Shown here piece by piece: positions 7,958 to 63,872 of a stretch of 64,000 bases of DNA. The stretch is from contig JADJEK010000007.1 of NCBI GenBank assembly GCA_016709145.1, positions 129,328 to 193,327 of the forward strand, in the 5' to 3' direction. The stretch is from Planctomycetota bacterium (GTDB lineage: Bacteria; Planctomycetota; B15-G4; JADJEK01). A program made the translations under genes and the position numbers. Positions within the stretch are counted from its first letter, which is position 1. Every line of letters starts with the position of its first letter. The notes under the pieces are model-generated. The model worked only from the letters and a program-made list of their open reading frames with translations, did not search any database and was not told the DNA's origin.

Positions 7958-8076
7958 GTCGACTCCAGGCTTCGCAGGGTGCCGGGAGGATGCGCGGTGC
8001 AAGGTCGAAACGCAAGGTCGCCCGCGCACGAAGCCCCACGCGGAGTGGGGTCACGGCTCGCTCTCGGCTCGCGTTA

Positions 8077-21179: not shown

Positions 21180-22334
21180 ATGAACAAGAAGGTCATCGAC
21201 ACGCTGGTCGGGCTGTTCCTGCTCGCCGCCGTCCTGCTCGGCCTGCTCGCGCTGGTGTCGCGCACGACGCTGCGTTCGCTGTTCACGAAGACGTCGGTCG
21301 TCGAGACCTGGCTGCCGCGCTCGTTGGTCACCGAAGGCAGCGCGGTCTACTTCCGCAGCTACCGCGTCGGCAGCGTGCTGCGCGTCGAACCGCGCTTCTT
21401 CAACACCACGCCCGGCGAGGACTGGTTCCGCGTCGACCTCGCGATCGACCCCGAGTTCAGCGGCGCGATCACCGACCAGTTCGTCACGACGATCGAATCC
21501 GGACCGCTCGGCAACATCACCGGCGCGAACTTGCTGCTGATCGCACCCGGTGAAGAAGGTTCGGGGATCGAGGGTCCCGTGTCGAAGGCGGGCACGCCGC
21601 TCGCCGCGCTCGAAGGCCGCAAGGTCGTGCTGCGCTACAACAACCCGACCTCGCTCGTCGACTCGTTGAAGGCGCAATTCGACGAGCTCATGCCGTTCAT
21701 CAAGCAAGCGATCCAGAGCGGCACCAAGTTGATCGACCAACTCGCCGATCCGCAGGGCGACTTGATGCGCTCGGTCGCCGAACTGCGACGCGCGGCCGAA
21801 GATCTGAACCGCGACGAAGGCCCGTTGCGCCGATCCTTGAACCAACTGCTCGATCTGACGCAGAAGCTGAACCAGGACGACGGACCGGTGCTCGGCGCGC
21901 TCGGCAAGGTCGACAGCGTCGTGTCGCACGTCGACGGCATCCTCGCGGGTCTCGAGCGCGGCGAGGGCATCGCCGGCGGCCTGCTGAAGGATCCGAAGAT
22001 GAAGGACGAGCTGCTCGCGACGATGACCGAACTGCGCGGCATCGCCGAGCAGACGCGCAAGCTGCTCGAGGAAGCGCATCCCACACTCGGCAACGTCGAG
22101 AAGACCACCGCGGAATTGCCGGTGATGATGAAGAAGATCACGTCGATCCTGGAACGACTCGACGCCGCATCGCGCGACCTGCCCGGCATCGCGCAGGAAG
22201 TCCAAGCGCTGCTGGTGGAGACCGACGAGACGCTGCGCGCGGTCCAGAAGCTGCCGTTCGTGCGCGACTACGTCGCCACTCCGGACGAAGTCGTCCCGCC
22301 CGTGCTGCCGGCCTCCGGCGGAGGTGGTTCGTGA
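21180..22334 (+). CDS. MlaD-like MCE-domain protein with long C-terminal helical region
   Basis: N-terminal TM (LVGLFLLAAVLLGLLALV), MCE-domain core (SAVYFRSYRVGSVLRVEP...VDLAIDPE), then about 200 aa of heptad-like helical sequence. Stop overlaps the next GTG start. Confidence 0.75.
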   Translation: MNKKVIDTLVGLFLLAAVLLGLLALVSRTTLRSLFTKTSVVETWLPRSLVTEGSAVYFRSYRVGSVLRVEPRFFNTTPGEDWFRVDLAIDPEFSGAITDQFVTTIESGPLGNITGANLLLIAPGEEGSGIEGPVSKAGTPLAALEGRKVVLRYNNPTSLVDSLKAQFDELMPFIKQAIQSGTKLIDQLADPQGDLMRSVAELRRAAEDLNRDEGPLRRSLNQLLDLTQKLNQDDGPVLGALGKVDSVVSHVDGILAGLERGEGIAGGLLKDPKMKDELLATMTELRGIAEQTRKLLEEAHPTLGNVEKTTAELPVMMKKITSILERLDAASRDLPGIAQEVQALLVETDETLRAVQKLPFVRDYVATPDEVVPPVLPASGGGGS

Positions 22335-30940: not shown

Positions 30941-31357
30941 ATGTTCGACGTGCGTGATCTGCCGGGCGTGAACGCGGTGCTGAACGCCACGGCAGCGACT
31001 CTGCTCGTGATCGGCTACGTCCTGATCAAGAACCGCCGCGAGGCCGCGCACAAGGCCTGCATGCTGGCGGCCACCGTCTGTTCGGCGTTGTTCCTGATCA
31101 GTTACCTCGTCTACCACGCGCAAGTCGGCTCGGTGAAGTTCCAGGGCCAAGGCACGATCCGCACGGTCTACTTCGCGATCCTGCTCAGCCACACCGTGCT
31201 CGCGGTCGTGAACGTGCCGCTCGTGATCCTGACGCTCGTGCGCGCGTTCAAGGGCGATCGCGAACGGCACAAGAAGATCGCGCGCATCACGCTGCCGCTG
31301 TGGATCTACGTCTCGATCACGGGCATCGTCGTCTACTGGATGCTCTACCGGATGTGA
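30941..31357 (+). CDS. DUF420-family small membrane protein
   Basis: 138 aa, four predicted TM helices. Conserved layout MFD...LPGVNAVLNATAA...KNRREAAHKACMLAA...YFAILLSHTVLA typical of DUF420 (YozB-like), which is frequently found beside ctaA/ctaB. Confidence 0.7.
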   Translation: MFDVRDLPGVNAVLNATAATLLVIGYVLIKNRREAAHKACMLAATVCSALFLISYLVYHAQVGSVKFQGQGTIRTVYFAILLSHTVLAVVNVPLVILTLVRAFKGDRERHKKIARITLPLWIYVSITGIVVYWMLYRM

Positions 31358-31362
31358 GAGGT

Positions 31363-32889
31363 ATGGGCGAACGCGCGCGCGGCTCGTTGCGGGAAGTTCG
31401 ACGACGCGCGTGGTTCTGCCTCGTCGTGGTCGTGGTGCTCGTACGCCTCGCGTTGCTCGCGTTCGGCCGCGTGCCGCCCGTCGACGCCTTCTACTTGAAC
31501 GGTGCGCTGCAGCTCGCGCACGGCCGAGCGCCGTACGAGGACTTCACGCACGTCGCGTTCCCGTGCGTCGAGTGGTGCTATGCGCTGCTGTTCCGGTGCT
31601 TCGACGCGCGCCTCTGCGCGGCCTCGGCTTTGACCGGTGTGGTCGTGCTGCTGACGGTCGCGCTGTGGTTCAAGGCGCTCGTACCGCGCGTCGGCGCTCG
31701 CGCCGCGGCGATCGGTTGCGCGCTGTACGCGACCTGCGCGCCGCTCGTCGCGTTCGCGCCGTTCCAGCGCGAAGTGTGGACGAACCTGCTGCTCGCGGCC
31801 GCGTTCGAGCGCGCATTGCGACGCAAGGCCACGGGCGACGCGGATTCCGCCGTCGCCGGCGCCTGGCTCGCGGGGGCGTTGTTGGCGAAGTTGACGGCGG
31901 GCGTCGGCGCGATCGCGCTCGCGCTCGAATGGCTCGCGAGTCGGCGCCCGCGACTCGCGCTCGTCGCGGGCGGCGTCGCGGCGCTCGTGCTCGCGACGTT
32001 CAGCGCCGCGTGCTTCGCGCGCTGGGAAGGCGAGTTCGCGGCGCAGGTGTTCGCGTTCTACGCGTTCAAGGGCGAGGCCGGTTCGGCCTCCGAACGCGCG
32101 ATCGCGATCCTGCGCTCGCTCGACCCTTGCCTCGCGCTCGGCGTGTTCGGCATCGGCTTCGCGGCTGTCACGCGACGACTCCGAGCGGCGCGACCGTTCG
32201 TGCTGCTGCTCTGCCTCTGGCTCGCGCACTACGTCTTCGTCTCGCCGTCGTTCTGGGACCACAACGCGATCGACCTCGCGCTGCCGGCCGCGGCGCTGGC
32301 CGCGTTCGCGATCCGCGCGCTCACGATCCGTCGGCGCCGCACCCTCGCGATCGCGGCGTGCGTCGTCGCCATCTGCGTCGGCGCGCGCGGGGCCGCTGGC
32401 GATCGCCCGGCGTGGTTCCCGCACGGCTTCGGCGGCGGTGTCGATCGGACCACGTCGAGCGCGATCTCGACCAAAGTGCGCGAGGCCGGCACGCCGGACC
32501 AACTGGTCGTGACCGGGACCCCGCTGCATGCGCTCGAGTCCGGTCGAACGCCGCTGGTCTCCGACTTCGAACTCGAACCGGTCGCTCGCGGCGTTCTGCT
32601 CGAGTTGCGTCGCTTCGGCATCCGCGCGGCGTTCGCGCGCAAAGGCGAGGGCGTGCTGCTCGGCGTGCCGATCGAGCAACGCATGCCCGCCCCACCGGGA
32701 TCGCTGTTCGCGCAACGCGTATTCGGCAACGCGCTGCATCACGTCTTGCCGCGCATGCTCGACGCGATCGACCGTCGCGAGGTCGCCGCGGTCCACCTCC
32801 CGGGCGGCCTGCCTGGACTCACCGAGCGCTTGACCAAGCGCGGCTACGTCCTCGCCGACGTCGACCTCTGGCTGATCGGCGCGCCTTGA
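31363..32889 (+). CDS. Polytopic membrane protein, possibly GT-C-type (PMT/ArnT-like) glycosyltransferase
   Basis: About 10 hydrophobic segments in first 330 aa, then a soluble C-terminal domain. Assignment by architecture only; no catalytic motif verified. Confidence 0.4.
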   Translation: MGERARGSLREVRRRAWFCLVVVVVLVRLALLAFGRVPPVDAFYLNGALQLAHGRAPYEDFTHVAFPCVEWCYALLFRCFDARLCAASALTGVVVLLTVALWFKALVPRVGARAAAIGCALYATCAPLVAFAPFQREVWTNLLLAAAFERALRRKATGDADSAVAGAWLAGALLAKLTAGVGAIALALEWLASRRPRLALVAGGVAALVLATFSAACFARWEGEFAAQVFAFYAFKGEAGSASERAIAILRSLDPCLALGVFGIGFAAVTRRLRAARPFVLLLCLWLAHYVFVSPSFWDHNAIDLALPAAALAAFAIRALTIRRRRTLAIAACVVAICVGARGAAGDRPAWFPHGFGGGVDRTTSSAISTKVREAGTPDQLVVTGTPLHALESGRTPLVSDFELEPVARGVLLELRRFGIRAAFARKGEGVLLGVPIEQRMPAPPGSLFAQRVFGNALHHVLPRMLDAIDRREVAAVHLPGGLPGLTERLTKRGYVLADVDLWLIGAP

Positions 32890-49748: not shown

Positions 49749-51281
49749 ATGACGACGTCGGATCGTGAGCGCCCGGGCAGGGCTTGGCCTGCCCTCGTGG
49801 TGAGTGCCTTGGTGACGCTCGCGTCGTTCGCGGCACGGGATGCGGATGCGACGTCGATCGACCTGGTCGTGGTCGACGCGAACTGCGATGCGCAGTTCGT
49901 CTCAGCTGCTCACCTGCTCGCGGCAGCCGACTCGGCCGTCGTCGCGACGGTCGATCTCCACGATCGCGATGCCCTCGCGGTGACCCTGCGCGAGCACGAA
50001 CCGCACGACGTCGTGTTCATGGTCGAACCGCGGCGCCTCGACCTCGACCTCACCCACCGCGTGATCGAACTCTCGACGCTCGTGGACTCCGACCCATTCC
50101 CCGACTTCGCGCACGGCTTCGTGACCGGGCTCGATGGCGCGGCCGCACGCCGCTTCGTGCAATCCATGCTCGCCGCGCGCGATGCGCAACGCGGTCGACG
50201 TCTCGGCGTCCTTGGAGTCAGTGAGGGTGCGACGCCGGCTCCACGACCGCTCGGCGCCGAGCTCGCGCGCGCATGCGGATTCTCGTTCGCGTTCGAAGGC
50301 CTGCCCGGCGTGGACGCGAGCGCGCGTCGCCGACGCGATGCGCTCGAGCGCCTGTCGCGTTCCGATCTGCTGATGTTGTTCTCGCACGGCGAACCCGACC
50401 GCATGGTCGGCGCATTCCGCGGCGAAGAGCTGCGCTCGTGGTCGATCGATCTCGACGGCCGTGTCGTCGTCAATTGCGCGTGCTTCAACGGTTCGATGTG
50501 TACGGCCACGCTGCCGGGCGTCGGCGGACTCGAGCGGCGCGAGACCGCGCCGGAGAGCACCGTGGCACTCGCGCTGCTCGACACCGGTGTGTCCGCGTAC
50601 GTGGCGGGCATGGACGCGTGGCACGGTCCACTCGCCGTCCAAGTGACGCTTGAACTCAGCGACACCGGCGCCACGCTCGGCGCGGCGGCGCGATTGCCGA
50701 TCGACCGCTTGGTGATGACGCAACTCGATCGCCCCCTGCGATTCCCCGCGCAGGACGCGGCGGACGCGCGCTTCAGTGCGGAGCCCGGCGCGTATGCGCG
50801 CGGCAATGCCGCCGGCGGCGTGCTGTTCGGCGATCCCTCGTTCGCGCCGTTTTCGGACGCGGCGCCGCGGTCGTTCCGCGCCACGCTCGATTCCGACTCG
50901 GCCAAGCCGACGGTGCGCATCGAACTCGAACCGCTGGTGGACGCGATCGGTGGCTACGAGTCGCTGTTGCTGCTCCCGCGCATCCTCGCGTACTTCGAAC
51001 CGCTGCCGTCGCCGCCGACGAGTCTGCCACTCGAGCTCTACCGCGTCGTCGACTGGCCCGCCGACGCACCGCGACGGAACGCTTGGCGCGTCGCATCGGC
51101 CACGACCGGCGACACCGAGGTCGATTGCGGCGAAGTGCTCACGGCCTACGAGGAGACGCCGCGCGGCCCGCGTCTGCACGTGGTCGTGCCGCTCGCGAAC
51201 CAGACCGGGATCGCCGCGTTCCAGTTGCGCGACCGACTCGCGCGCTTCGGTGCGGCGATCGTGCTCGAACCTGACGGGTGA
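49749..51281 (+). CDS. Secreted hypothetical protein with caspase-like (clan CD-type) His...Cys spacing
   Basis: Signal-like AWPALVVSALVTLASFAA. Candidate dyad LLMLFSHGEPDRM ...(35 aa)... VVVNCACFNGS, resembling the His-Gly/Cys arrangement of gingipain/CHAT/caspase-fold peptidases. Assignment tentative. Confidence 0.45.
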   Translation: MTTSDRERPGRAWPALVVSALVTLASFAARDADATSIDLVVVDANCDAQFVSAAHLLAAADSAVVATVDLHDRDALAVTLREHEPHDVVFMVEPRRLDLDLTHRVIELSTLVDSDPFPDFAHGFVTGLDGAAARRFVQSMLAARDAQRGRRLGVLGVSEGATPAPRPLGAELARACGFSFAFEGLPGVDASARRRRDALERLSRSDLLMLFSHGEPDRMVGAFRGEELRSWSIDLDGRVVVNCACFNGSMCTATLPGVGGLERRETAPESTVALALLDTGVSAYVAGMDAWHGPLAVQVTLELSDTGATLGAAARLPIDRLVMTQLDRPLRFPAQDAADARFSAEPGAYARGNAAGGVLFGDPSFAPFSDAAPRSFRATLDSDSAKPTVRIELEPLVDAIGGYESLLLLPRILAYFEPLPSPPTSLPLELYRVVDWPADAPRRNAWRVASATTGDTEVDCGEVLTAYEETPRGPRLHVVVPLANQTGIAAFQLRDRLARFGAAIVLEPDG

Positions 51282-52754: not shown

Positions 52755-54065
52755 GTGACTCTCAACGTGCTCGTCGTGGACGATATGGCGACGGTGCGGG
52801 ACACCGTCATCCGGATGCTGCGCAAAGCCGGAATGCGCGCCACTCCCGCAGTGTCGGGGACCGAGGCGCTGAACGAGCTCACGCAACGGCAGTTCGACAT
52901 CGCGCTCGTCGACCTCAAGATGGGATCGATGGACGGCATCGAACTGCTGCGTCGCATCCGTGCACGCTGGCCGAAGATCGGTGTGGTCGTGATGTCGGCT
53001 TACGCGACGGTCGGCGTCGCGGTCGAGGCCATGCGCAACGGCGCCTCCCACGTGCTCGAGAAGCCGTTCACGATGGAAGCGCTGCTCGACGCCATCCAAC
53101 TCGCGTCGCACTCGTCCGCACCCGGCGACGGCACGCCCGCGGGCTCACCGTTCGAGGAGCTGGTCGGCCACAGCCGCGAGTTCCTCGACGCGGTCGATCT
53201 CGCGCGCCGCGCCGCGGAGAACGACAAGCCGCTGTTGATCGTCGGCGAGCCCGGCACGGGCAAGGAAGCGTTCGCTCGCGCGATCCACAGCGGCAGCACG
53301 CGCCGCGCGGGACCGTTCGTGGTCCAACGCTGTGCCGGCGGTTCGATCGGAGTGATCGCCGAACTGTTCGGCGTCACCGGCGGCTCGCTCGGTCGCATCG
53401 CGGATGCGGATCGCGGCACGCTGTTCATCGACGAGATCGGTGATCTGCCCGCCGAAGCGCAGGCACGCCTGCTGCGCTTCCTCGCCGACGGCGAGATCGT
53501 GCGCGAGGCCGGACTACCGACGTCGCGCGCCGACGTCCGCGTGATCGCGGCGACCGCGAAGGACCTCGACGTCGAAGTGCGCGCCGGCCGCTTCCGCAAC
53601 GATTTGCTGCTGCGACAGCGCACGTTGCTGCTGCGCTTGCAACCGCTGCGCGAGCGCAAGGCGGACTTGCAGAAGTTGCTCGCGCACTACGCCAAGAAGA
53701 ACCGGCCGCGCGGCGGCAGCGCACCGCGCTTCTCGCGGGACGCGGTGCGCGTGCTCATGACGCACGACTTCCCCGGCAACCTGCGTGAGCTCGAGAACCT
53801 GATCGAGCAAGCTTCGAGCATGTGCGTCGGCGCGGAGATCGGGCCCGAAGTCTTCGAGCGCCTCGGCCTGCGCGGCATCGACGAACCGATCGACACCGAC
53901 GGCGGCGCGATCAAGAACCGCATCGAGGGCGAGGAGCGACGCGCGGTCGAGGAAGCCGTCCAACGCAACCCGCGCAATCTCGCACGCGCGGCGTCCGAGC
54001 TCGGCATCTCTCGCACCACGTTGTGGCGCAAGATGAAGAAGTACGGACTACTCGAAGGCGAGTGA
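52755..54065 (+). CDS. NtrC-family response regulator (receiver + AAA+ sigma-54-interaction-type domain + Fis-type HTH) with degenerate GAFTGA loop
   Basis: Receiver residues DD (VVDDMA), phospho-Asp (ALVDLKM), S (MSAY), K (EKPF). AAA+ Walker A GEPGTGKE, Walker B LFIDEI, arginine finger region. HTH ISRTTLWRKMKKYGL. Loop where GAFTGA is expected reads ELFGVTGGSLG. GTG start. Confidence 0.85.
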   Translation: MTLNVLVVDDMATVRDTVIRMLRKAGMRATPAVSGTEALNELTQRQFDIALVDLKMGSMDGIELLRRIRARWPKIGVVVMSAYATVGVAVEAMRNGASHVLEKPFTMEALLDAIQLASHSSAPGDGTPAGSPFEELVGHSREFLDAVDLARRAAENDKPLLIVGEPGTGKEAFARAIHSGSTRRAGPFVVQRCAGGSIGVIAELFGVTGGSLGRIADADRGTLFIDEIGDLPAEAQARLLRFLADGEIVREAGLPTSRADVRVIAATAKDLDVEVRAGRFRNDLLLRQRTLLLRLQPLRERKADLQKLLAHYAKKNRPRGGSAPRFSRDAVRVLMTHDFPGNLRELENLIEQASSMCVGAEIGPEVFERLGLRGIDEPIDTDGGAIKNRIEGEERRAVEEAVQRNPRNLARAASELGISRTTLWRKMKKYGLLEGE

Positions 54066-54102
54066 GCCGGACGGCCGACACGCCGTCGAACGAGCGGCAC
54101 GT

Positions 54103-54151
54103 GGAACGAGCCTGCCCGCGATCGCCGTGAACGATCGCGGGCAGGCTCGTT
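54103..54151. terminator. Bidirectional terminator-like hairpin between convergent regulator and dehydrogenase genes
   Basis: Perfect 21-bp inverted repeat gaacgagcctgcccgcgatcg-ccgtgaa-cgatcgcgggcaggctcgttc centred in the 104-bp convergent intergenic gap. Confidence 0.55.
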
Positions 54152-54169
54152 CCGCGTTCCGCTCGTCGT

Positions 54170-55219
54170 TCAGAGGGACTTGGCGACCATCGTGCCGATC
54201 TCGTCGGTGGGCAGGACGCCCGCGTTCAGCGACGGGATCTTGCCGCTGACGATCGCCGTCTCGACCGACTTCTCGATCGCGGCCGCGGCGTTCTCTTGGC
54301 CGACGTAGTCGAGCAGCATCGACACGGCCATGATCGACGCGATCGGGTTGGCCTTGTTCAGGCCCTTGTACTTCGGCGCCGAACCGTGGATCGGCTCGAA
54401 CATCGAGACCTGGCCCGGATGCAAGTTGCCCGACGCCGCGATGCCGAGTCCGCCTTGGATCATCGCGCCGAGGTCCGTGATGATGTCGCCGAAGATGTTC
54501 GGCGAGACGGCGACGTCGAACCACTCGGGGTTCTTGATCATCCACATGCACGCCGCGTCGATGTACGCGTGGTCGGTCCGGATGTCGGGGTACTCCTTCG
54601 CGACGTCGGCGAAGGTCCGCGTCCAAATGTCCTGCGCGCGGATCGCGTTGGCCTTGTCGATCAGCGTGACCTTCTTCTGCTTGTTGCGCTTGCGCGCGAC
54701 TTCGAATGCGTAGCGGATCGCGCGCTCACAGCCCTTGCGCGTGTACAGCATCGTCGCGATCGCGACTTCGTCGGGCGTGCTCTGCTTGAAGATGCCACCG
54801 ATGCGCGTGTACGCGTCCTCGGTGTTCTCCCGCACGAACACCATGTCGACGTCTTTCGGCCCCTTGTCCTTCAGCGGGCACAGGCGCTCGTGCAAGAGCT
54901 TCACCGGCCGCAGGTTCACGTAGAGGTCGAGCTTGAAGCGGATGCCGCCGATGATCGCGTGCTCGAGCATGCCGGTCTCGATGCGCGGATCGCCGATCGC
55001 GCCGAGGAAGATCGCGTTCATCTGGCGCAGCTCGGAGAAAACGCTCTCGGGCATCGTCTCCGTCGTCTTCAGGTAGTGCTCGGCGCCGAACGGGTAGACG
55101 ATCTTCTCGTAGTCGAAACCGAACTTCTCGGCCGCGGCGTGCAGCACCTTCATCGCCTCGCGCGTCACTTCCTCACCGATGCCGTCACCCGGAATCACCG
55201 CGACGCGCAGCTTGCCCAT
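54170..55219 (-). CDS. Isopropylmalate/tartrate/isocitrate dehydrogenase-family NAD(P)-dependent decarboxylating dehydrogenase (LeuB-like)
   Basis: MGKLRVAVIPGDGIGEEV N-terminal nucleotide/substrate motif. NIFGDIITDLGA, HGSAPKYKG... motifs. 349 aa, start at M25 of track ORF. Confidence 0.8.
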   Translation of the reverse strand: MGKLRVAVIPGDGIGEEVTREAMKVLHAAAEKFGFDYEKIVYPFGAEHYLKTTETMPESVFSELRQMNAIFLGAIGDPRIETGMLEHAIIGGIRFKLDLYVNLRPVKLLHERLCPLKDKGPKDVDMVFVRENTEDAYTRIGGIFKQSTPDEVAIATMLYTRKGCERAIRYAFEVARKRNKQKKVTLIDKANAIRAQDIWTRTFADVAKEYPDIRTDHAYIDAACMWMIKNPEWFDVAVSPNIFGDIITDLGAMIQGGLGIAASGNLHPGQVSMFEPIHGSAPKYKGLNKANPIASIMAVSMLLDYVGQENAAAAIEKSVETAIVSGKIPSLNAGVLPTDEIGTMVAKSL

Positions 55220-55371
55220 GTCCGCTCCGACTCGATCGTCTTGGCCGATGCCGCGCTCGCGATCGTGCATCTCGCACGGAACCTCGCACACGCGGCGGAA
55301 GCGCGGGATTGTGCGGAATCACCGATGCGACGGCAAGCACCGGCTCGGTTCACCGCGCCGCGCGACCTGCG

Positions 55372-56631
55372 TCAAACCGTCTCACGCAAGCGCCGCAGCA
55401 CTTCGTCCGGATGACCGATGCGGCCGAGCACGGCCGAGGCGATCGCGACGGCGCTGCCCGAGAGCAACGCGTGCACGCCGTCGGGAACACCGACCGGACG
55501 CGTGGTGAACAGCCAGCGATCGCCGGGCGCTCCGACGAATCCGCGCGGGCCCGAGAACAGCCCCGCCGACGGTTGCGCGATCAGCGCCCCGGCACGCACG
55601 AGCACGGTCAACAGACCTTCCTCGGCCGCGTGCTGCAGAGCGCGCTGGCTGCCGGGCACGATGATCAACGTCAGCTCGTCCGCGATCGGATGTTCCTTCA
55701 ACAGCCGGACCGCGAGCCGCAGGTCGTCGATGCGACCGCCGTGCTCGCCCCCGAGCACGACGCCCGACAGCGCGAGCGTCGGCAAGTTCGCGACGGGCTT
55801 TGGCGCGACCTCGGGCGCGCACGAGCGCACCACCGGATCGACTCCGTCGACGTCGACGTCGATCGATCGCGACAACACGGCGCCGTGGTCTTGCACGATC
55901 GGTCGCACCAGCCGCGCGCAGCGCGCGCGCGTCCATGCCAACGCGCGTTCGTCGGGAACGCAGACGATGCCACGCGCCCCCACCGCGACGAACGCGTCCG
56001 CGAGCGCCATGCGCTCGGGCAATTCCAACTCGGCGTACGCGACGCCTTCGAGCTGCACCACAGCGTCGACACACGCCTCGCCCGCGACCGCGATCGCGCG
56101 CTCGCCGAGGTCGCGGCCCGAGCTCCAGCGCCCCGGCTTGCCGTGCAACGTGACCCTCACAGTGCGTGGGACCTCGACGTCGAACGCGGGATCCCGCACG
56201 AGTCCTTCGAGCGCGACGACGTTCGGCTCGAGCACGAACGCGCCGAGGACACCGAGCACACGCGCGCCGCGTGCGCTCGAGACGACCAGATCGCCGGGCC
56301 CGACGAGCCCGCGGTCCGCGAGTTCGACGACTTGCGCGCCGCCGCGTCCCGCGGCGACGAACGTGGCGCCGACCTCGCGGGCGAATGCCCTCGCGGCGCG
56401 ATCGAGCGCACGCCAACGTCCGTCGACGTCGGCCCGGAAGCCCTCCTCGAACACGACGATGCGCCGCCCGTCGACGACCGCCCCAGGCGCCAGCGCATCG
56501 AGCTTCGACAAAACGACCGCGTCTTCGTCCAACGCGACGACTTTCGGCGACACACGCACACGCTCGCCGACCGCGACGACGTCGCGGCCGGCGTGTTGAG
56601 CGAGGATCTTCTCGACGAGCGTGAGCGGCAT
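55372..56631 (-). CDS. LeuC-like aconitase-family protein lacking Fe-S cluster cysteine ligands (probable pseudo-enzyme)
   Basis: MPLTLVEKILAQHAG... N-terminus and two long blocks align with archaeal-type LeuC/homoaconitase large subunit (e.g. ...[23 protein letters not shown].IADDV...NPSCSACMGS... corresponds to ...LSGVVLGGEHGGRIDDLRLAVRLLKEHPIADEL...AQPSAGLFSG...). The CTNG and CSAC cysteines and a GxDSHT motif are absent. Confidence 0.55.
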   Translation of the reverse strand: MPLTLVEKILAQHAGRDVVAVGERVRVSPKVVALDEDAVVLSKLDALAPGAVVDGRRIVVFEEGFRADVDGRWRALDRAARAFAREVGATFVAAGRGGAQVVELADRGLVGPGDLVVSSARGARVLGVLGAFVLEPNVVALEGLVRDPAFDVEVPRTVRVTLHGKPGRWSSGRDLGERAIAVAGEACVDAVVQLEGVAYAELELPERMALADAFVAVGARGIVCVPDERALAWTRARCARLVRPIVQDHGAVLSRSIDVDVDGVDPVVRSCAPEVAPKPVANLPTLALSGVVLGGEHGGRIDDLRLAVRLLKEHPIADELTLIIVPGSQRALQHAAEEGLLTVLVRAGALIAQPSAGLFSGPRGFVGAPGDRWLFTTRPVGVPDGVHALLSGSAVAIASAVLGRIGHPDEVLRRLRETV

Positions 56632-56659
56632 CAGGCCACCACCGCCGCGCACCGCGAGG

Positions 56660-57868
56660 TCATTTCGCCTCGACGAGGATGGCGATGCCCTGCCCGCCGC
56701 CGATGCACGCCGACGCGATGCCGGTCTTCTTGCCGCTCGCCTTCAGCGCGTTCAACAGGGTCAGCGTGATGCGCGTGCCGGTCGCTCCGAGCGGGTGCCC
56801 GAGTGCGATCGCGCCGCCGTTCACGTTGACCTTCGAGCGGTCGAGCCCGAGGTCCTTCTCGACCGCGAGGTATTGCGCCGAGAACGCCTCGTTGATCTCG
56901 AACAGATCGATCTTGTCGACGCCGATGCCGGCGCGCTCGCAGACCTGACGGATCGCAGGCGCCGGACCGATGCCCATCTCCGACGGCTCGACGCCGACGA
57001 TCGACCACGCCACGATGCGACCGAGCGGCTTCACACCGAGTTCCTTCGCGCGCGTCGCCGACGCGACGATGACCGCGGCCGCGCCGTCGACGATGCCCGA
57101 CGCGTTGCCGGCCGTCACGGTGCCGTCCTTGCCGAACGCCGCCGGCAGGCCCGCGAGGCCGGCCAACGTCGTCTCCGGCTTGATGTGGTCGTCGAGGTCG
57201 ACCTTGATCACGCCCTTGCGCGTCTGGATCTCGACCGGGACGATCTCGGCGGCGAAGCGACCGCTTTTCACGGCCTCCGCTCCGAGTTGGTGCGAGCGCA
57301 GCGCGAACTCGTCCTGCGCCTCGCGCGTGATGCCCCACTTCTTGGCGATCTTCTCGGCCGTCTGCGCCATGAACAGGCCGCACATCGGGTCCTGCAGGGA
57401 CGAGAACAGCAGGTCCTCGAGTTCGGTCTTCGCGCCGAAGCGCAAGCCGGTGCGCGCACCGCGCAGGACGTGCGGAGCTTGGCTCATGCTCTCCATGCCG
57501 CCGGCGGCGACGACGTGCGCTTCACCGCAGCGGATCATTTGCGCCGCGGACACGATCGACTGGATGCCCGAGCCGCACAGCCGATTCACGGTCAACGCGG
57601 GCTTGTCGATCGGCACGCCGGCCTTCAGCGCGACGTGGCGCGCGCCGTAGATCGAATACTCCGTCGTCTGCAGCGCATTGCCGATCACGGTGTGGTCGAT
57701 CTGCTCGGGTTTGATGCCGGTCCTGGCCAGCGCGCCCTTCAGCGCCCAGGCGCCGAGATCCATCGCGCCGACGTCCTTGAGCTTGCCGAAACCCGGCGTG
57801 CCCGAGTATTCGGCCATCGCCGTGCGTGCGCCACCGAGGATCCAAAGTTCGTCCGTTGCGGTCGTCAT
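56660..57868 (-). CDS. Acetyl-CoA C-acetyltransferase (thiolase II)
   Basis: Thiolase active-site regions NRLCGSGIQS (Cys), ...GNASGIVDGAAA..., NVNGGAIALGHPLGATG (His), IGGGQGIA (Cys). Confidence 0.9.
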   Translation of the reverse strand: MTTATDELWILGGARTAMAEYSGTPGFGKLKDVGAMDLGAWALKGALARTGIKPEQIDHTVIGNALQTTEYSIYGARHVALKAGVPIDKPALTVNRLCGSGIQSIVSAAQMIRCGEAHVVAAGGMESMSQAPHVLRGARTGLRFGAKTELEDLLFSSLQDPMCGLFMAQTAEKIAKKWGITREAQDEFALRSHQLGAEAVKSGRFAAEIVPVEIQTRKGVIKVDLDDHIKPETTLAGLAGLPAAFGKDGTVTAGNASGIVDGAAAVIVASATRAKELGVKPLGRIVAWSIVGVEPSEMGIGPAPAIRQVCERAGIGVDKIDLFEINEAFSAQYLAVEKDLGLDRSKVNVNGGAIALGHPLGATGTRITLTLLNALKASGKKTGIASACIGGGQGIAILVEAK

Positions 57869-57937: not shown

Positions 57938-58720
57938 TCAAGCGCCGGTGAAGCGTGCGGGACGCTTCTCGAGGAATGCCTTCAAGCCTTCGCGCGTGTC
58001 GGCCGTCGAACCGATCAGCCCGAACAGTGCGGCTTCGAGCGCGAGTCCCTCGCCAAGCGCGAGATCCTGGCCTCGCGTCGCCGCGTCGAGGATGAACCGC
58101 GTCGCGACCGGCGCCTTGCTCGCGAGCTTCGTCGCGATCTTCGTCGCCGCGTCCTGGAGCTGATCGGGTTCGAACACCTTGTTCACGAGCCCGAGGCGAC
58201 AGGCCTCGTTCGCGTCGATCGGATCGCCGGTCAGCACCATCTCGAGCGCCGGCCCACGGCCGACCAAGCGCGGCAAGCGTTGCGTACCGCCGTAGCCCGG
58301 CATGATGCCGAGATTGATCTCGGGCAAACCGAGCTTCGCGTTCGACGACGCGTAGCGGAACGTGCACGACAGCGCGAGTTCGAGCCCGCCACCCAGCGCG
58401 AAGCCGTTGATCGCCGCGATCACGGGCTTGCCGAGCGTCTCGATGCGGCGGAACACGGCTTGGCCGTACGCGGCCGTCGCGCCGAGCTTCGCCGGTGACG
58501 CGCCGTCGAGTTCGGCGATGTCGGCGCCGGCGACGAAGAACTTGGGGCCGGCTCCGGTCAACACCACCGTGCGCACCGACGCGTCGGTCGCGAGACCCGT
58601 GAACACGCAATCGAGTTCACCGATCAGCGCGGCATTCAGGGCGTTGCCCTTGTCCTGGCGATCGATCGTGACGACCGCGACGCCGTCGTGCGTCGCGACG
58701 CGCAGGAACTGCAGCGTCAT
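57938..58720 (-). CDS. Enoyl-CoA hydratase (crotonase family)
   Basis: Start at M191 of the 57938..59290 track ORF (MTLQFLRVATHDGVAVVTIDRQDKGNAL). Crotonase oxyanion-hole motifs GAGPKFFVAGADI and INGFALGGGLELAL. 260 aa. Confidence 0.85.
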   Translation of the reverse strand: MTLQFLRVATHDGVAVVTIDRQDKGNALNAALIGELDCVFTGLATDASVRTVVLTGAGPKFFVAGADIAELDGASPAKLGATAAYGQAVFRRIETLGKPVIAAINGFALGGGLELALSCTFRYASSNAKLGLPEINLGIMPGYGGTQRLPRLVGRGPALEMVLTGDPIDANEACRLGLVNKVFEPDQLQDAATKIATKLASKAPVATRFILDAATRGQDLALGEGLALEAALFGLIGSTADTREGLKAFLEKRPARFTGA

Positions 58721-59724
58721 CGACCACCGTCCTTCTTTTCGGGCGAAGGAGCCGGGGCGCCCGACTCGGCCACTGTGCGCATGCCGGGCACCAGCGTCGC
58801 CTTGTCGATTTTGATCGGGTCGACGGGCATCGACGGTTCGCCGCTCATCGGGTTCGGACCGACCGGAGCCGTCGCGATCTTGTCGACGACGTCCATGCCG
58901 TTCACGACCTTGCCGTACGCCGTGTACTTCTCGTCGAGGAACGACGCGTCGCCATGACACAGGAAGAACTGCGAGCCACCGGAGTTCGCGAACTTCGCTT
59001 CGGGTCGCGCGCCGAGGCGCTCGCGCGGATCGCCGATGCGCGCCATCGACAGCACGCCGGGCTCGTGCTTGCGCGAGTTGAACTCGGCTTCGATCGAGTA
59101 CCCGGGACCACCCGAGCCGTCGCCCTTCGGATCGCCGCCCTGGATCATGAAGCCCTTCATCACGCGATGGAACTTCAGTCCGTCGTAGTAGCCACGTGCC
59201 ACGAGATTGGCGATGTGCAGACCGGTCGCCGGAGCGACGTCGGTCCAGAACTCGACGTCCATGGCGCCGCTCTTCGTCTCCATGTGCCACAGCAGCGAGT
59301 CCATGCCGTCCTTGCCTTCGACGGCGATCGACTTCGCTTCACCGCGCACCGGCGCGTCGCCACCGTTCCAGATCGGCGTGAACGTCCACGTCCCGGCGGT
59401 CGGGATCACGAGCGCGTGTTCGAACGTCAGCGTCGCCCCTTGCGCGAGGTCCTGGCCCTTCAGCGTCGAAGGCTGGTACGAAGCCGGGTGATAGGCCGTG
59501 TACTTCGAGGCCTTGCCGTCGCCGAACGTCAGTTCGAACTCGAACGAGCGCGCGTCGAGCATCGGTTCACGCACGGTCGCCGCCTTGCCGGAGTTCTTCA
59601 CGGCCACGACCAGCTTCGCGCTCTCCCCGAGAGCAACGCGGTCGGGCGCGGTGAAGCTCACGGCGAAATCGCCCGCGATCGGCGCGGCGGCGAACAGGAC
59701 GGTCGTCAGAGTCAGAGCGATCAT
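58717..59724 (-). CDS. Secreted cyclophilin-type peptidyl-prolyl isomerase with ~130-aa N-terminal extra domain
   Basis: MIALTLTTVLFAAAPIAG signal. C-terminal cyclophilin core (HRVMKGFMIQGGDP...GGSQFFLCHGDASFLDEKYTAYGKV). Start/stop overlaps with both neighbours (4-nt). Confidence 0.8.
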   Translation of the reverse strand: MIALTLTTVLFAAAPIAGDFAVSFTAPDRVALGESAKLVVAVKNSGKAATVREPMLDARSFEFELTFGDGKASKYTAYHPASYQPSTLKGQDLAQGATLTFEHALVIPTAGTWTFTPIWNGGDAPVRGEAKSIAVEGKDGMDSLLWHMETKSGAMDVEFWTDVAPATGLHIANLVARGYYDGLKFHRVMKGFMIQGGDPKGDGSGGPGYSIEAEFNSRKHEPGVLSMARIGDPRERLGARPEAKFANSGGSQFFLCHGDASFLDEKYTAYGKVVNGMDVVDKIATAPVGPNPMSGEPSMPVDPIKIDKATLVPGMRTVAESGAPAPSPEKKDGGR

Positions 59725-60596
59725 TTCTTCTTGTCTCCTTCCCACTCGTAGAAGCCGCGGCCGGACTTCCGGCCCAGATGTCCCTTCGCGACCATGTCGC
59801 GCAGGAGTTGCGGCACCTTGAACGTGGGATCGTTGGGGAAGCGGTCGGCCCAGCCCTGCAGGATCGACAACGTCGTGTCGAGCTCGACGTAATCGAGCAA
59901 CGTGATCGGTCCCATCGGATGGCCGCAGCCGAGCTGCATGCCGGCGTCGATGTCTTCCTTGGAGGCGTCGCCGCGTTCGAGCATGCGGATCGCTTCGCCG
60001 AGGTAAGGCACGAGCAGGCGGTTCACGACGAAGCCCGGCGTGTCCTTCGCCATCACGGGCTGCTTGCCGACGGCCTTCGCGAATCCCTTCACGGCCTCGA
60101 ACACGTCGGCCGCGGTCTGTTCGGTGCGCACGACTTCGACCAGCGCCATCAACTGGACCGGATTGAAGAAGTGCAACCCCACCATGCGCGCCGGCCGGCC
60201 CGAGGCCTCACCCATCGCGGCGATCGGGAACGACGACGTGTTCGACCCGAAGATCGTCGCGGGCTTGCAGAGGCCGCCGAGTTCCTTCAGCAGTGCGCTC
60301 TTCGCACCGAGGTCCTCGACGATCGCTTCGATCACGAGGTCGCAATCGGCGAGGTCCGCGACCTTCGTCGACGACGTCAGCTTCGCCAGCGCCAACTCCT
60401 GCGTGGCCTGGCTCAACTTCCCCTTCTCGACCAGCTTCGCCAGCGAACCCTTGATGCGGCCGAGCCCCTTGTCGAGGAACGCTTGCTCCTTCTCGACGGC
60501 GATCACATCGAGGCCCGCCATCGCACAGATCTGCGCGATCCCGGACCCCATCAAGCCGAGTCCCACGACGCCCACTTTGCGAATCTCGGTGCCCAA
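59721..60596 (-). CDS. hbd: 3-hydroxybutyryl-CoA dehydrogenase
   Basis: Rossmann VGVVGLGLMGSGIA, 3HCDH signature region, C-terminal dimerisation domain. 291 aa. Confidence 0.9.
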   Translation of the reverse strand: MGTEIRKVGVVGLGLMGSGIAQICAMAGLDVIAVEKEQAFLDKGLGRIKGSLAKLVEKGKLSQATQELALAKLTSSTKVADLADCDLVIEAIVEDLGAKSALLKELGGLCKPATIFGSNTSSFPIAAMGEASGRPARMVGLHFFNPVQLMALVEVVRTEQTAADVFEAVKGFAKAVGKQPVMAKDTPGFVVNRLLVPYLGEAIRMLERGDASKEDIDAGMQLGCGHPMGPITLLDYVELDTTLSILQGWADRFPNDPTFKVPQLLRDMVAKGHLGRKSGRGFYEWEGDKKK

Positions 60597-60599
60597 GGG

Positions 60600-61475
60600 G
60601 ATGCAACCTCCGATCGAAGAGTGAAGCGCGGGATTTCAGCGGGAGCCGGGCTGGCGCGCAACTGCGGGAACGGGGGAATGGAGGTCGGGGGATTGGCGCG
60701 ACGTACTTTCACCCGCGCGAGCGGAGCGCGGACCGGGTCAGAAGACGTGAACGTGAACGGAACTCTGGAAAACGGTGACGGCGGCGCGGTACCCGGCGGC
60801 ACGAGCGAAGCGGTGGAACGACCTGAACAAGAATGCCGCCGGCAATCCTGTTCGGCCAGCCGGACAAGAACGCCGCCGGGGGACACATCGGGGACAGACC
60901 CGCCTCCGTCCCCGTCATGGCCGTCGAGCTCGGGTGGGGACAGTCCCCTCATCTGCTCTGTCCCCACTCCTTCAATCGCCACCGCGGAGCGCGAAGCGCG
61001 ACCCGGAGTTCTCCCTCGGGTCCAAGCTCGCGCGTGCCCGAGTAACCACTCCGTCGCCAAGGGACGTCGAGACCTGCTCTCGCTGCGGCCGTTCACTCGC
61101 CCGCCGCAGCTGTGGCGATCCGCTGTACGAGTCCCGTCAGTACGTCACCCGGGGCGAAATGGACAGGGGTCGTAAGTCGCAAGCTCAGCAAGCCACCCCT
61201 GCGCCCCTGTGAGAAGGCGAACGGCCGCCGCGAGAGCCCGTTCTCGACGTCCCTTCGCGTGAAGTCTCACGCGCGACTCAAGGGCGCGGGGGTTCCCAAA
61301 GGGGGGCTTCGCTCGTTTGTGAAGCCCCCCTTTGGTCGTTCGACCGCGAGCGGTCGAACGAGGGTGTGGGGGCCTTCGGCCCCCACCTCGCCTTCGGCGT
61401 CTGTGTGACGGGGCCCGGGGGCCGCTGGCCCCCAGCTGCGTGGATGGTCAGCACCATCCGGCCCCGCGGCCCGAG
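60600..61475. repeat. Composite structured intergenic repeat, copy C (inverted orientation relative to copy A)
   Basis: Reverse complement of 60880-61060 is >98 % identical to 23640-23830. 61060-61270 is the 35-bp-TIR element (right TIR degenerate). 61270-61400 matches the G/C hairpin block of copy A. 60740-60880 carries the tail and a degenerate half-palindrome (tgccgccggcaat). Fills essentially the whole 880-bp gap between hbd and the second thiolase. Confidence 0.65.
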
Positions 61476-61477
61476 CG

Positions 61478-62656
61478 TCAGCTTCTTTCGAACGCCACGC
61501 TCATCCCCATGCCGCCGCTGATGCACAGCGACGCTAGGCCGCGCGGCGATTCCAGGCGCTCCATCTCGTGGAGCATCGTCACGACGATGCGGGCGCCGGT
61601 CGCGCCGATCGGATGACCCAGCGCGATCGAGCCGCCGTTCGGGTTCACGCGGTCCATCGGCAAGTTCATCTCGCGGTTGCACGCGATCACTTGCGCGGCG
61701 AACGCTTCGTTGAGTTCGATCACGTCGAAGTCGTAGAGCTCGACGCGGCCGCCCATCTTCTTGAACAGGTTCTTCGTCGCGGGCACCGGGCCCAAGCCCA
61801 TGACCTTCGGATCGACTCCGCCCGAGGCCCACGCCTGCACGCGCGCGAGCGGCTTCAGCTTCAGCTCGGCGAGCCTCTTCTCGCTGACGAGCACGAGCGC
61901 GGCCGCGCCGTCCGTCACTCCCGACGAGTTGCCGGCGTGGACGCTGCCGTCCTTCTTGAACACCGCGGGCAGCTTCGCCATCTGCTCCGCGGTCACCCCA
62001 TCGCGCGGGTGCTCGTCGGTGTCGAACACCTTCGCGACCCCCTTCTTGTCGACGATCGTGACCGGCGCGATCTCGCGCTTGAAGCGCCCCGCCTTGCGCG
62101 CCAGTTCGCATTTGCGCTGCGACGCCGCGGCGAACTCGTCCTGCTCTTCGCGCGTGATCTTGTACTGCTCGGCCAACGTCTCCGCGGTGCGACCCATCAA
62201 CTGGTCCGCGATCGGACAGAAGAAGCCGTCGCGGAAGTTGCCGTCGTGCACCGTCGCGTGCCCGAGCCGGAAGCCCTGGCGCAGATCGAGTTCGAACGGC
62301 ACGCGCGTCATCGATTCCGTACCGCCGGCAACGACGACGTCGGCTTCGCCGCAGTCGATCACGCGCGCCGCCTGGACGATCGCTTCGAGTCCCGAGCCGC
62401 ACGCCTTGTTCAGCGTCACACCGATCGCGGTCTGCGGCAGGCCGGCCTTGATCAGGATCTGGCGCGCCGGGTTCGGCCCGCCGCCGGCTTGACGCGCGTT
62501 GCCGAAGAACACGTCTTCGACGAGCGCGGCGTCGACCCGCGCGCGTTCGAGCGCGGCCTTGACCGCGTGGACGCCGAGATCGACGGCCGAGAGTTCGGAG
62601 AACTGGCCGAAGAACGCGCCGATCGGAGTGCGGCACGCGGAGACGATGAATGCCAT
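61478..62656 (-). CDS. Acetyl-CoA C-acetyltransferase (thiolase II), second copy
   Basis: [10 protein letters not shown] (Cys), [17 protein letters not shown] (His), ISGGMGMS (Cys). 392 aa. Confidence 0.9.
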
Positions 62657-62699: not shown

Positions 62700-63872
62700 T
62701 CACTTCAGGATCTGACGCGAGATCACGAGACGCTGCACTTCGCTCGTGCCTTCGCCGATCGTGCACAGCTTGGCGTCGCGCCAGAAGCGCTCGACCTCGT
62801 ACTCGGTCGAATAGCCGTAACCGCCGAGCACCTGGATCGCGTCGTAGGTGACCTTCATCGCGACTTCGGACGCGTGCAACTTCGCCATCGCCGACTCGAA
62901 GCCGAACGGGCGGCCCGCGTCCTTCAATCGCGCCGAGTGGTAGACGAGGTGGCGCGCGCACTGGATGCCGACCGCCATGTCCGCGAGCTTGAACGCGATC
63001 GCTTGGTGATCCGCGATGCGCTTGCCGAACGTGACGCGTTCCTTCGCGTACTTCTTCGCGCGCTCGTACGCGCCTTGCGCCAGACCGAGAGCCATCGCTC
63101 CGATCGAGATGCGGCCGCCGTCGAGCGTCTTCATGAAGGTCTTGAAGCCTTCGCCCTCGGCGCCGACGCGGTTCTCGACCGGGACTTCGCAGTCCTCGAA
63201 GATCAATTCGGCCCAATCGGAGCCGCGCGTGCCGAGCTTCTCGAGCTTCTGCCCGAGGCGGAAACCCTTGTACGCCTTCTCGACGATGAACGCCGAGATA
63301 CCGCGGCCGCCGGGCTCGTCGCTGGTCTTCGCCGTGGCGATGAACGTCTCGCCGATGTTGGCGTTCGTGATGAAGATCTTGGTGCCGTTCAGCACGTAGC
63401 GATCGCCCTTGCGGACCGCCGTCGTCTGCGTGCCGCCGGAGTCCGAACCCGCGTTCGGCTCGGTCAGGCCGAACGAGCCGAGTTTCTTGCCCGACGCGAG
63501 ATCGGGCACGTACTTGCGGCGCTGCTCGTCGCTGCCGAACGCGAAGATCGGATACGTGCACAACGACACATGCGCCGCGAGCGTCAACGCGGTCGAGCCG
63601 CACACACGCGCGAGTTCCTCGATCGTGAGGATGTAGGACATCGTGTCCATGCCCGCGCCGCCGAGCTCGGCCGGGATCGGAACGCCGGTCAGGCCGAGCT
63701 CACGCATCTGCGCCCACAGGCTCATGTCGAACGTGGACGTCTTGTCCATCGTCATGGCGCGTGGCGCGACTTCCTCCTCCGCGAAGCGACGAACGGTGTC
63801 GCGCAGGAGCGTCTGCTCCTCGCTGAGGTCGAGATTGAACGCGGTGGAGTCGGTCGTGGTGTCGGTCATCAA
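62700..63872 (-). CDS. Acyl-CoA dehydrogenase (short/butyryl-chain type)
   Basis: ACAD N-, middle beta- and C-terminal domains. [10 protein letters not shown], catalytic Glu context ([27 protein letters not shown]). Confidence 0.9.

Follow-up and report, generated by a model that had tools for sequence, protein, structure and literature searches.

Large subunits of the aconitase family are textbook obligate [4Fe-4S] enzymes, and a gene from a Planctomycetota bacterium raises the question of why such a subunit should be kept when every residue that would hold a cluster has been replaced. The gene lies on the minus strand at 55372..56631 of a 64-kb stretch of DNA (hereafter the window; all coordinates are positions within it) and encodes a protein, here called pLeuC, that resembles the large subunits of 3-isopropylmalate dehydratase (LeuC) and homoaconitase (HacA). 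We can state with high confidence that pLeuC has kept the fold of these proteins and lost their cluster ligands and active site, that no small subunit is encoded nearby, that the gene is under purifying selection, and that it belongs to a family confined to Planctomycetota. On balance, we favour the explanation that pLeuC is a dead LeuC/HacA paralogue, a relic of a leuCDB operon, that has been retained for a non-catalytic binding role.

The open reading frame (ORF) consists of 419 codons and a stop, not the 420 residues given in a preliminary description of the locus. The ATG at 56631 fits the N-termini of all homologues (M-x-(L/T)-T-L-V-E-K-I) and, since all of them begin there, we take it to be the real start; an upstream GTG at 56652 is an unlikely alternative. 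The protein, MBK6941385.1, which is encoded on a 332-kb contig, is labelled 'hypothetical protein' by the Prokaryotic Genome Annotation Pipeline (PGAP). The Pfam Aconitase model (PF00330) scored it at 53.2 bits against a cut-off of 28.7, which places it in the aconitase superfamily, and NCBIfam models of LeuC/HacA align to it from residue 1–4 through 405–411, bearing out the block-for-block alignment with archaeal-type large subunits proposed in the preliminary description. The scores nevertheless fall below half of every curated NCBIfam cut-off for a functional LeuC/HacA: 176 versus 385 bits for PRK00402, 160 versus 611 for TIGR02083, 153 versus 386 for TIGR01343, and 144 versus 410 for TIGR02086. 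By alignment of hidden Markov models (HMMs), the closest solved structures are the Methanocaldococcus jannaschii isopropylmalate isomerase (MJ0499; 4KP1/4NQY) and homoaconitase (MJ1003; 4KP2) large subunits, with E-values of 5e-23 and 5e-19, respectively. An AlphaFold2 (AF2) model built from a multiple sequence alignment of 16 sequences has a predicted local distance difference test (pLDDT) score of 89.9 and a predicted template modelling (pTM) score of 0.89. Foldseek matches this model to 4KP1 with an E-value of 2e-37 and a template modelling (TM) score of 0.88, and to aconitase B (1L5J) and mitochondrial aconitase with query-length-normalised TM scores of 0.82–0.83. Thus, as modelled, pLeuC keeps the three-domain fold of aconitase large subunits. 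The likeness to archaeal-type LeuC/HacA extends to the length of ~420 residues, the N-terminal TLVEKIL, the GGRIxDLR helix, the PGSQ strand and the GRIxxP end. Long shadow ORFs overlap pLeuC on the opposite strand, and in DNA of such high GC content a mis-called frame, with no gene at all, might be suspected. However, LeuC homology runs the full length of this frame, GC content at the three codon positions (GC1/2/3 = 0.80/0.49/0.86) carries a coding signature for it, and the purifying selection described below is specific to it; this alternative is already refuted, and its chance of being right is virtually nil.

The substitutions in pLeuC were read from a pairwise HMM alignment and three multiple alignments, which agree with one another. 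The counterpart of the GSCTNGR motif is GGEHGGR (residues 294–300; 55732..55752, minus strand), in which Glu296 stands where the first cluster cysteine would be. The counterpart of PxCxxC is PSAGLF (residues 354–359; 55555..55572, minus strand), in which the second and third cysteines are replaced by Ala356 and Phe359. The preliminary description was right that the cysteines have been replaced, although its by-eye register was off by 1–2 residues: SCTNG corresponds to GEHGG, not to LGGEH. It had also reported the absence of a GxDSHT motif, and indeed the column of the catalytic GADSHT reads SSARGA (residues 118–123; 56263..56280, minus strand). Its assignment could have failed had the cysteines simply been shifted or had the protein belonged to a non-aconitase family, but the profile alignment, Pfam and the fold agree in excluding both. 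The losses extend well beyond the cluster. In pLeuC, the DH pair has become EG at positions 63–64 and DSHT has become ARGA at 120–123; an invariant His is replaced by Val101, an Asn by Asp212 and a Glu by Ala216; and the NRNFxGRMG block has been either substituted or deleted. We take these columns, from general knowledge, to be equivalent to the numbered catalytic residues of aconitase. pLeuC has neither the cysteine ligands nor the catalytic and substrate-binding residues looked for in a functional LeuC. Four cysteines remain, at positions 187, 224, 238 and 271. We considered an alternative cluster site formed from these residues and rejected it because none of the four is conserved in the family. 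The lowest AF2 confidence falls in the former active-site loops, at residues 61–70 and 360–363. Judged from its sequence, pLeuC appears unable to bind a [4Fe-4S] cluster or to catalyse dehydration.

To place pLeuC among its relatives, we searched a profile against 1.84 billion cluster representatives and classified the matches by motif. The search yielded ~15 clusters of proteins close to pLeuC (clade A) and ~10 clusters of a second group (clade B). Clade A comprises the window protein, P0002–5, P0021–29, P0036, P0039 and P0160; its members lack DSH and the three cysteines, except that two fragments retain one cysteine. It has 50 invariant columns, including those of a C-terminal tail, GRxAHPDEVLRxxREAV. 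In pLeuC this tail reads GRIGHPDEVLRRLRETV (55375..55425, minus strand); it is specific to the family in our alignments, is predicted to be helical in the AF2 model, and runs ~8 residues past the end of canonical LeuC, which in Planctomycetota terminates in ...GRIAHPDEV(AR). Tail residues R404, H407, P408, D409, E410, R413, R416, E417 and V419 are invariant in the family. Clade B comprises P0030, P0032–35, P0037, P0043, P0050, P0060 and P0064, plus P0307–P0318; it also lacks DH, DSH and NRNF, and its tail is different and basic. We compared alignment columns across 15 clade A, 18 clade B and 19 canonical sequences. The three cluster positions are cysteine in 100% of the canonical LeuC proteins, and ~45 columns that are 95–100% conserved in those proteins are not retained in the two degenerate clades. 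One clade B subgroup retains the first two of the three cysteines, and members with one or two cysteines appear from their sequences to be intermediate states; the existence of such states suggests that catalysis was lost before the last cluster ligands went. Whether cysteine-less homologues form a clade, a point raised with the preliminary description, is answered by neighbour joining (NJ), in which clades A and B together are monophyletic in 100 of 100 bootstraps. All named members of the family are from Planctomycetota. In a species-level genome collection, counted over the best 80 of 205 relatives, eight of the 80 loci belong to clade A, and these are from metagenome-assembled genomes of Planctomycetota or Phycisphaerae, with the exception of one that carries only the label 'bacterium'; canonical LeuC proteins of the same genomes may lie outside these 80. 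The eight pLeuC-bearing genomes are JAEUIB01, JBPOIU01, CAZYQW01, JAZDLC01, JAUIEL01, JBICIB01, DYIW01 and JACQZJ01. A full-text literature search found no published description of a cluster-less, catalytically dead LeuC/aconitase homologue. As far as these sequence searches reach, the family is undescribed and known only from Planctomycetota.

Loss of the cluster alone need not mean loss of activity, because two other cysteine-less, LeuC-like proteins from metagenomes retain much of the rest of the machinery. In P0018 (locus L084, 2128–3402) and P0015 (L085, 2248–3498), as in pLeuC, the cluster motifs are gone, with GSCTNGR changed to GGHGG(G/A)R and CxxC to STGS (PSTGSN). These proteins differ from pLeuC in retaining DH, GSDSHT and RNFPGR, fall outside the family formed by clades A and B, and adjoin one or two Aconitase_C small-subunit genes, L085 also encoding a second large subunit. 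From their sequences, P0015 and P0018 may act in a heteromeric hydro-lyase complex or as Fe-S-independent hydratases. By the same token, pLeuC might still be an enzyme that hydrates or isomerises some other hydroxy-acid without a cluster, or that works with a small subunit encoded elsewhere, and the good conservation of the fold and of the crevice in domain 3 would fit such an activity. An Fe-S-independent role had been offered as one option in the preliminary description. We consider Fe-S-independent catalysis unlikely since the acid/base and substrate-binding residues have been lost together with the ligands. Unlike P0015 and P0018, which keep DSHT, RNFxGR and small subunits of their own, pLeuC has lost DH, His, DSH, Asn, Glu and the arginines of NRNFxGR; moreover, the family has no conserved replacement set of polar residues, the AF2 model is least confident in the former active-site loops, and there is no small subunit in the 64 kb. 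That pLeuC is still an enzyme is therefore very improbable.

The absence of a small subunit was established with a Planctomycetia LeuD probe, which by tblastn found no LeuD-like sequence in the window, in agreement with the preliminary description, and none in any of 11 related clade A loci. The same probe found an adjacent LeuD in ~37 canonical loci. Thus, pLeuC has neither an adjacent nor a fused small subunit (LeuD, Aconitase_C) at its locus. The window likewise contains no second LeuC, and Pfam identified no leuA, ilv or other leucine gene among 23 further ORFs of the window to which it was applied. Taken together, the differences between pLeuC and archaeal-type LeuC/HacA comprise the three cysteines, DH, DSH(T), the Asn and Glu, NRNFxGR and LeuD. 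Relative to canonical LeuC, pLeuC has gained the conserved C-terminal helix (LRRxRExV) and evolves 2–3 times faster.

Rapid change and the disappearance of all catalytic residues could also mark a functionless relic that is slowly decaying, its ORF being kept by chance or because translation through it protects the leuB message downstream. We estimated dN/dS by the Nei-Gojobori method among four relatives at 78–81% identity. For pLeuC, nonsynonymous divergence (dN) is 0.11–0.15 and synonymous divergence (dS) is 0.71–0.94, giving a ratio (omega) of 0.12–0.18, with the tightest constraint at codons 281–350 (omega 0.06). Between relatives, the neighbouring LeuB has a dN of ~0.015 and a dS of 0.17–0.37, such that the pLeuC protein changes ~8 times faster than LeuB. 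Synonymous constraint on pLeuC is also weaker, its synonymous divergence being 2–4 times that of LeuB or thiolase for the same genome pairs. pLeuC is the fastest-changing gene of its block: in distant clade A genomes its identity is 37–42%, versus 78–80% for LeuB, 80% for thiolase, 65–66% for the 3-hydroxyacyl-CoA dehydrogenase Hbd, 62–67% for crotonase, 50–54% for cyclophilin and ~50% for the sigma-54 regulator. Its composition has drifted to GC-rich codons, with a GC1 of 0.80 (0.58–0.68 in its neighbours), 10% Arg and 1.4% Lys, and its GC3 of 0.86, compared with 0.91–0.94 in its neighbours, reflects a weaker codon bias. All of this, together with a dS exceeding that of the neighbours, would fit decay. 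The unusual composition and the raised synonymous divergence suggest low expression or weak codon bias. However, an omega of 0.12–0.18 is far from 1; full-length copies with identities as low as 37%, like those of clade B, are free of frameshifts and stops; and the 50 invariant columns of clade A include the new C-terminal tail. Protection of a downstream leuB cannot explain retention, given that nothing follows the gene within its unit at the clade B locus L088. The low omega and the intact ORFs in all relatives indicate that pLeuC is under purifying selection, and it appears on sequence evidence to be not a decaying pseudogene but a gene under relaxed but real constraint. We judge decay to be improbable. 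The combination of a homologous, modelled fold, lost catalytic machinery and purifying selection read from sequence is that of a pseudo-enzyme, as the preliminary description had proposed.

On the minus strand, the genes follow one another in the order acyl-CoA dehydrogenase (ACAD), thiolase 2, hbd, cyclophilin, crotonase, thiolase 1, pLeuC and LeuB. By annotation, hbd (59721..60596), encoding 3-hydroxyacyl-CoA dehydrogenase, is probably the first operon gene; it is followed by a cyclophilin-type peptidyl-prolyl isomerase that carries a hydrophobic segment at its N-terminus and an additional domain of ~150 residues (58717..59745) and by enoyl-CoA hydratase, or crotonase (57938..58720). Directly upstream of pLeuC lies an acetyl-CoA C-acetyltransferase assigned by Pfam (thiolase 1; 56660..57868). 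This order puts pLeuC second to last, at the 3′ end of the hbd-cyclophilin-crotonase-thiolase operon; the preliminary description had the pair of pLeuC and LeuB upstream of a beta-oxidation operon, but on this strand it lies downstream, beginning 28 nt after the thiolase stop. That spacer (56632..56659, minus strand) is of equal length in L001–L003, and so short a gap implies co-transcription of pLeuC with the acyl-CoA genes. The last gene (54170..55219, minus strand) encodes an intact 3-isopropylmalate dehydrogenase, LeuB, of the actinobacterial/tartrate-dehydrogenase-like subtype. Its NF002898 score of 432 bits exceeds the cut-off of 393, whereas the tartrate dehydrogenase model TIGR02089 gives 321 bits, below the cut-off of 470. 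The best match of this protein in the PDB is Mycobacterium tuberculosis LeuB (1W0D; 6e-79), relative to which it keeps the LRF, NLRP, VRE, Y, K, DAA and GDIITD motifs, and the catalytic Arg, Tyr, Lys and Asp are present. PGAP also labels it 3-isopropylmalate dehydrogenase, and the well-preserved enzyme of the isopropylmalate/tartrate dehydrogenase family noted in the preliminary description is therefore a genuine LeuB. Convergent with the operon is a gene annotated as a sigma-54-dependent response regulator of the NtrC type (52755..54065, plus strand).

A context look-up with the exact pLeuC sequence gave no match, and neighbourhoods were compared through homologues. The arrangement thiolase-pLeuC-LeuB is kept on three metagenomic contigs whose pLeuC copies are 78–81% identical, and the gene order of the window recurs in distant clade A genomes. 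LeuB adjoins pLeuC in 11 of 11 related clade A loci; in one locus (L007) pLeuC directly follows cyclophilin. Clade B loci (L086–L090) carry a conserved string consisting of a PyrK-like reductase, two ACAD genes, in places a metallo-beta-lactamase, cyclophilin, in places crotonase, and then pLeuC (at 8001–9300/9362, or 5913–7253 in L087), with SIR2, a tRNA synthetase or the convergent sigma-54 regulator downstream. These loci retain the ACAD/cyclophilin block, and L088 and L089 also retain crotonase and the sigma-54 regulator, which is syntenic across clade A and part of clade B. In both clades, no upstream neighbour of the degenerate LeuC is more constant than cyclophilin. Across the family, then, the constant is a conserved gene string and not LeuB.

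The position of the pLeuC gene upstream of leuB, like that of leuC in leuCDB operons, suggests how it arose. In a Planctomycetia locus (L052), leuC, leuD, leuB and asd overlap one another; the LeuB is of the same subtype and 54% identical, and the LeuC ends in ...GRIAHPDEV. In clade A, pLeuC is followed by leuB across a gap of 46–160 nt, and leuD is absent. In a Phycisphaerae genome, a canonical LeuC of high conservation is encoded by itself beside trpD. We infer that an ancestor had leuC-leuD-leuB at this place and that leuD was then deleted, the isomerase role passing to another leuCD copy. The old leuC would have lost its chemistry and yet been kept, with leuB later moving away in the lineages of clade B. 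In the window's genome, pLeuC would be expressed from the last part of the hbd-cyclophilin-crotonase-thiolase transcript. It would be retained for binding, serving either as a subunit with an accessory or regulatory task or as a module that binds a ligand, through the constrained Rossmann-like domain 3 (residues ~281–350) and the family-specific C-terminal helix. In clade A, LeuB would be the first candidate partner, and the acyl-CoA enzymes would be the alternative.

There are precedents for such a change of role. HisZ is a catalytically dead paralogue of histidyl-tRNA synthetase that serves as a regulatory subunit of ATP-phosphoribosyltransferase, its partner being HisG. By analogy, and on general knowledge, pLeuC would be another dead paralogue of a housekeeping enzyme kept in an amino-acid-biosynthesis neighbourhood; the folds are unrelated, and HisZ has a demonstrated partner and function, whereas pLeuC is known from sequence alone. 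We offer only tentatively, and with more doubt than conviction, the suggestion that pLeuC is a HisZ-like regulatory or accessory subunit for LeuB and/or the short-chain acyl-CoA pathway, in which case it would be the first permanently Fe-S-free, non-catalytic member of the aconitase superfamily to be described. A second precedent for a non-catalytic role lies within the superfamily, where the iron regulatory proteins IRP1 and IRP2 and apo-aconitases are cluster-free proteins with RNA-binding roles. IRP1 and IRP2 retain the cluster cysteines and a domain 4, and RNA is bound in the cleft between domains 1–3 and domain 4. These proteins are only distant Foldseek matches to pLeuC, whose chain ends after domain 3 and which has neither domain 4 nor a basic RNA-binding cleft. 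We set aside an IRP-like role as unlikely because domain 4 is absent and the protein is mildly acidic, with an isoelectric point (pI) of 6.1.

Several observations weigh against a retained binding role in a leuCDB relic. If another leuCD copy had taken over the isomerase role, a canonical leuC might be expected in the window's genome, but none of 10 candidates checked, found with a Phycisphaerae LeuC query, had an accession in the range of the window's proteins (MBK69413xx); the top 120 matches of this search stopped at 76% identity. The NJ tree nests clades A and B, by a long branch, within archaeal-type LeuC of bacteria with no resolved sister group, and long-branch attraction is possible. 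Residues conserved specifically in both degenerate clades are few (D106, R159, W169, R305, Q329, H334 and R413) and so define no clear new site. Since the neighbouring genes serve disparate functions (acyl-CoA enzymes stand beside a cyclophilin that is probably exported and, in places, a tRNA synthetase), the synteny may represent inherited gene order and not shared function. LeuB is present in none of the five clade B loci, so a LeuB-specific role is not the general function of the family. The relic scenario is itself one that we infer from sequence comparison; a binding role is plausible but putative, and LeuB is a candidate partner only. The absence of LeuB from the clade B string also weakens the proposal in the preliminary description that the pseudo-enzyme is retained beside its usual partner dehydrogenase, although its retention as such, with an omega of 0.12–0.18, stands. 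We think it rather unlikely that LeuB is the specific partner of pLeuC.

The same gene strings raise the alternative that pLeuC is tied to the co-transcribed short-chain acyl-CoA operon, as a scaffold or as a sensor of acyl-CoA or hydroxy-acid, and that its adjacency to LeuB is historical. Consistent with this, only 28 nt separate pLeuC from the thiolase gene; clades A and B share the ACAD/cyclophilin block, behind which the degenerate LeuC follows; L088 and L089 again have crotonase and the convergent sigma-54 regulator, in a clade without LeuB; and in the window's subclade leuB has a conserved promoter-like element of its own. However, the block is mixed in function, with its hydrophobic-segment cyclophilin and, at certain loci, SIR2 or a tRNA synthetase, and the gene immediately upstream varies between thiolase, crotonase and cyclophilin. 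Furthermore, pLeuC has no CoA- or nucleotide-binding residue pattern beyond the Gly-rich GxxxGGR loop inherited from GSCTNGR. We regard this alternative as a minority possibility.

The long persistence of a fold that has lost its cluster, catalytic residues and small subunit would make pLeuC a clean natural example of a pseudo-enzyme in bacterial core metabolism; a permanently Fe-S-free, LeuD-less LeuC under selection should surprise specialists, although the family is small. Annotation is also affected. Joint Genome Institute (JGI) pipelines label several members '3-isopropylmalate/(R)-2-methylmalate dehydratase large subunit'. This label is misleading, and in metabolic reconstructions it would wrongly credit genomes with a step of the leucine pathway. 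If a partner of pLeuC were found, it could reveal new regulation of leucine or short-chain acyl-CoA metabolism in Planctomycetota.

The spacer between pLeuC and leuB (55220..55371, minus strand) is 152 nt long. In the window's subclade, where it measures ~150–160 nt, it contains a conserved promoter-like element, TTGCCG-N17-CA(C/A)AAT (CACAAT in the window); in distant relatives it is 46–95 nt long and ends in GGAG. Conserved blocks of the leuB leader in the window and L001–L005 are GCTTGCCGTC and CA(C/A)AATCCC(A/G)CGCTT(C/T)CG. The leader also has a conserved hairpin, CCGTG(C/T)...(G/A)CACGG, with one compensatory pair, and the CGCTTCC block is predicted to pair with GGAGCG at the leuB ribosome-binding site, which might thereby be sequestered; the fold energy of the spacer is no better than that of shuffled sequences. 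A strict sigma-70 consensus scan returned zero promoters and did not detect the spacer element, a scan for terminators found no excess over shuffles, and there is no sigma-54 consensus promoter near the operon. Folding reveals a long, near-perfect hairpin (54089..54167) between the stop codons of leuB and the sigma-54 regulator gene, which converge here. The 116-nt stretch that holds it (54060–54175) has a minimum free energy of −85.4 kcal/mol (z = −9.6 versus shuffles). As the long hairpin has no U-tract, it is probably, judging from the sequence, a bidirectional terminator that closes the transcription unit. Rfam applied to 53900–57000 gave only spurious matches to microRNA precursors, all to this hairpin.

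Further upstream on the minus strand lie ACAD (62700–63872) and thiolase 2 (61478–62656). Neither a convincing gene nor a consensus promoter of the sigma-54 or sigma-70 type was found in the ~880 nt between thiolase 2 and hbd (60597–61477). Right behind thiolase 2, at ~61285–61335, is a strong hairpin, AAAGGGGGGCTTC...GAAGCCCCCCTTT, and the acyl-CoA genes therefore probably form two transcription units.

Some minor features of the window are worth recording. The start of the cyclophilin gene, as called, overlaps the hbd stop by 25 nt, and the presence of a probably exported peptidyl-prolyl isomerase inside a cytoplasmic acyl-CoA operon is an arrangement kept in distant Planctomycetota loci. 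Four large ORFs (15347–17059, 21180–22334, 31300–32889 and 49749–51281) have no Pfam match. The remainder of positions 1–52500 has content typical of Planctomycetota, including FG-GAP/ASPIC repeat proteins, TPR proteins and a Ser/Thr kinase with TPR, as well as DUF1501, Rho, Mfd, def, ribF, UbiA and two weakly squalene-hopene-cyclase-like repeat proteins.

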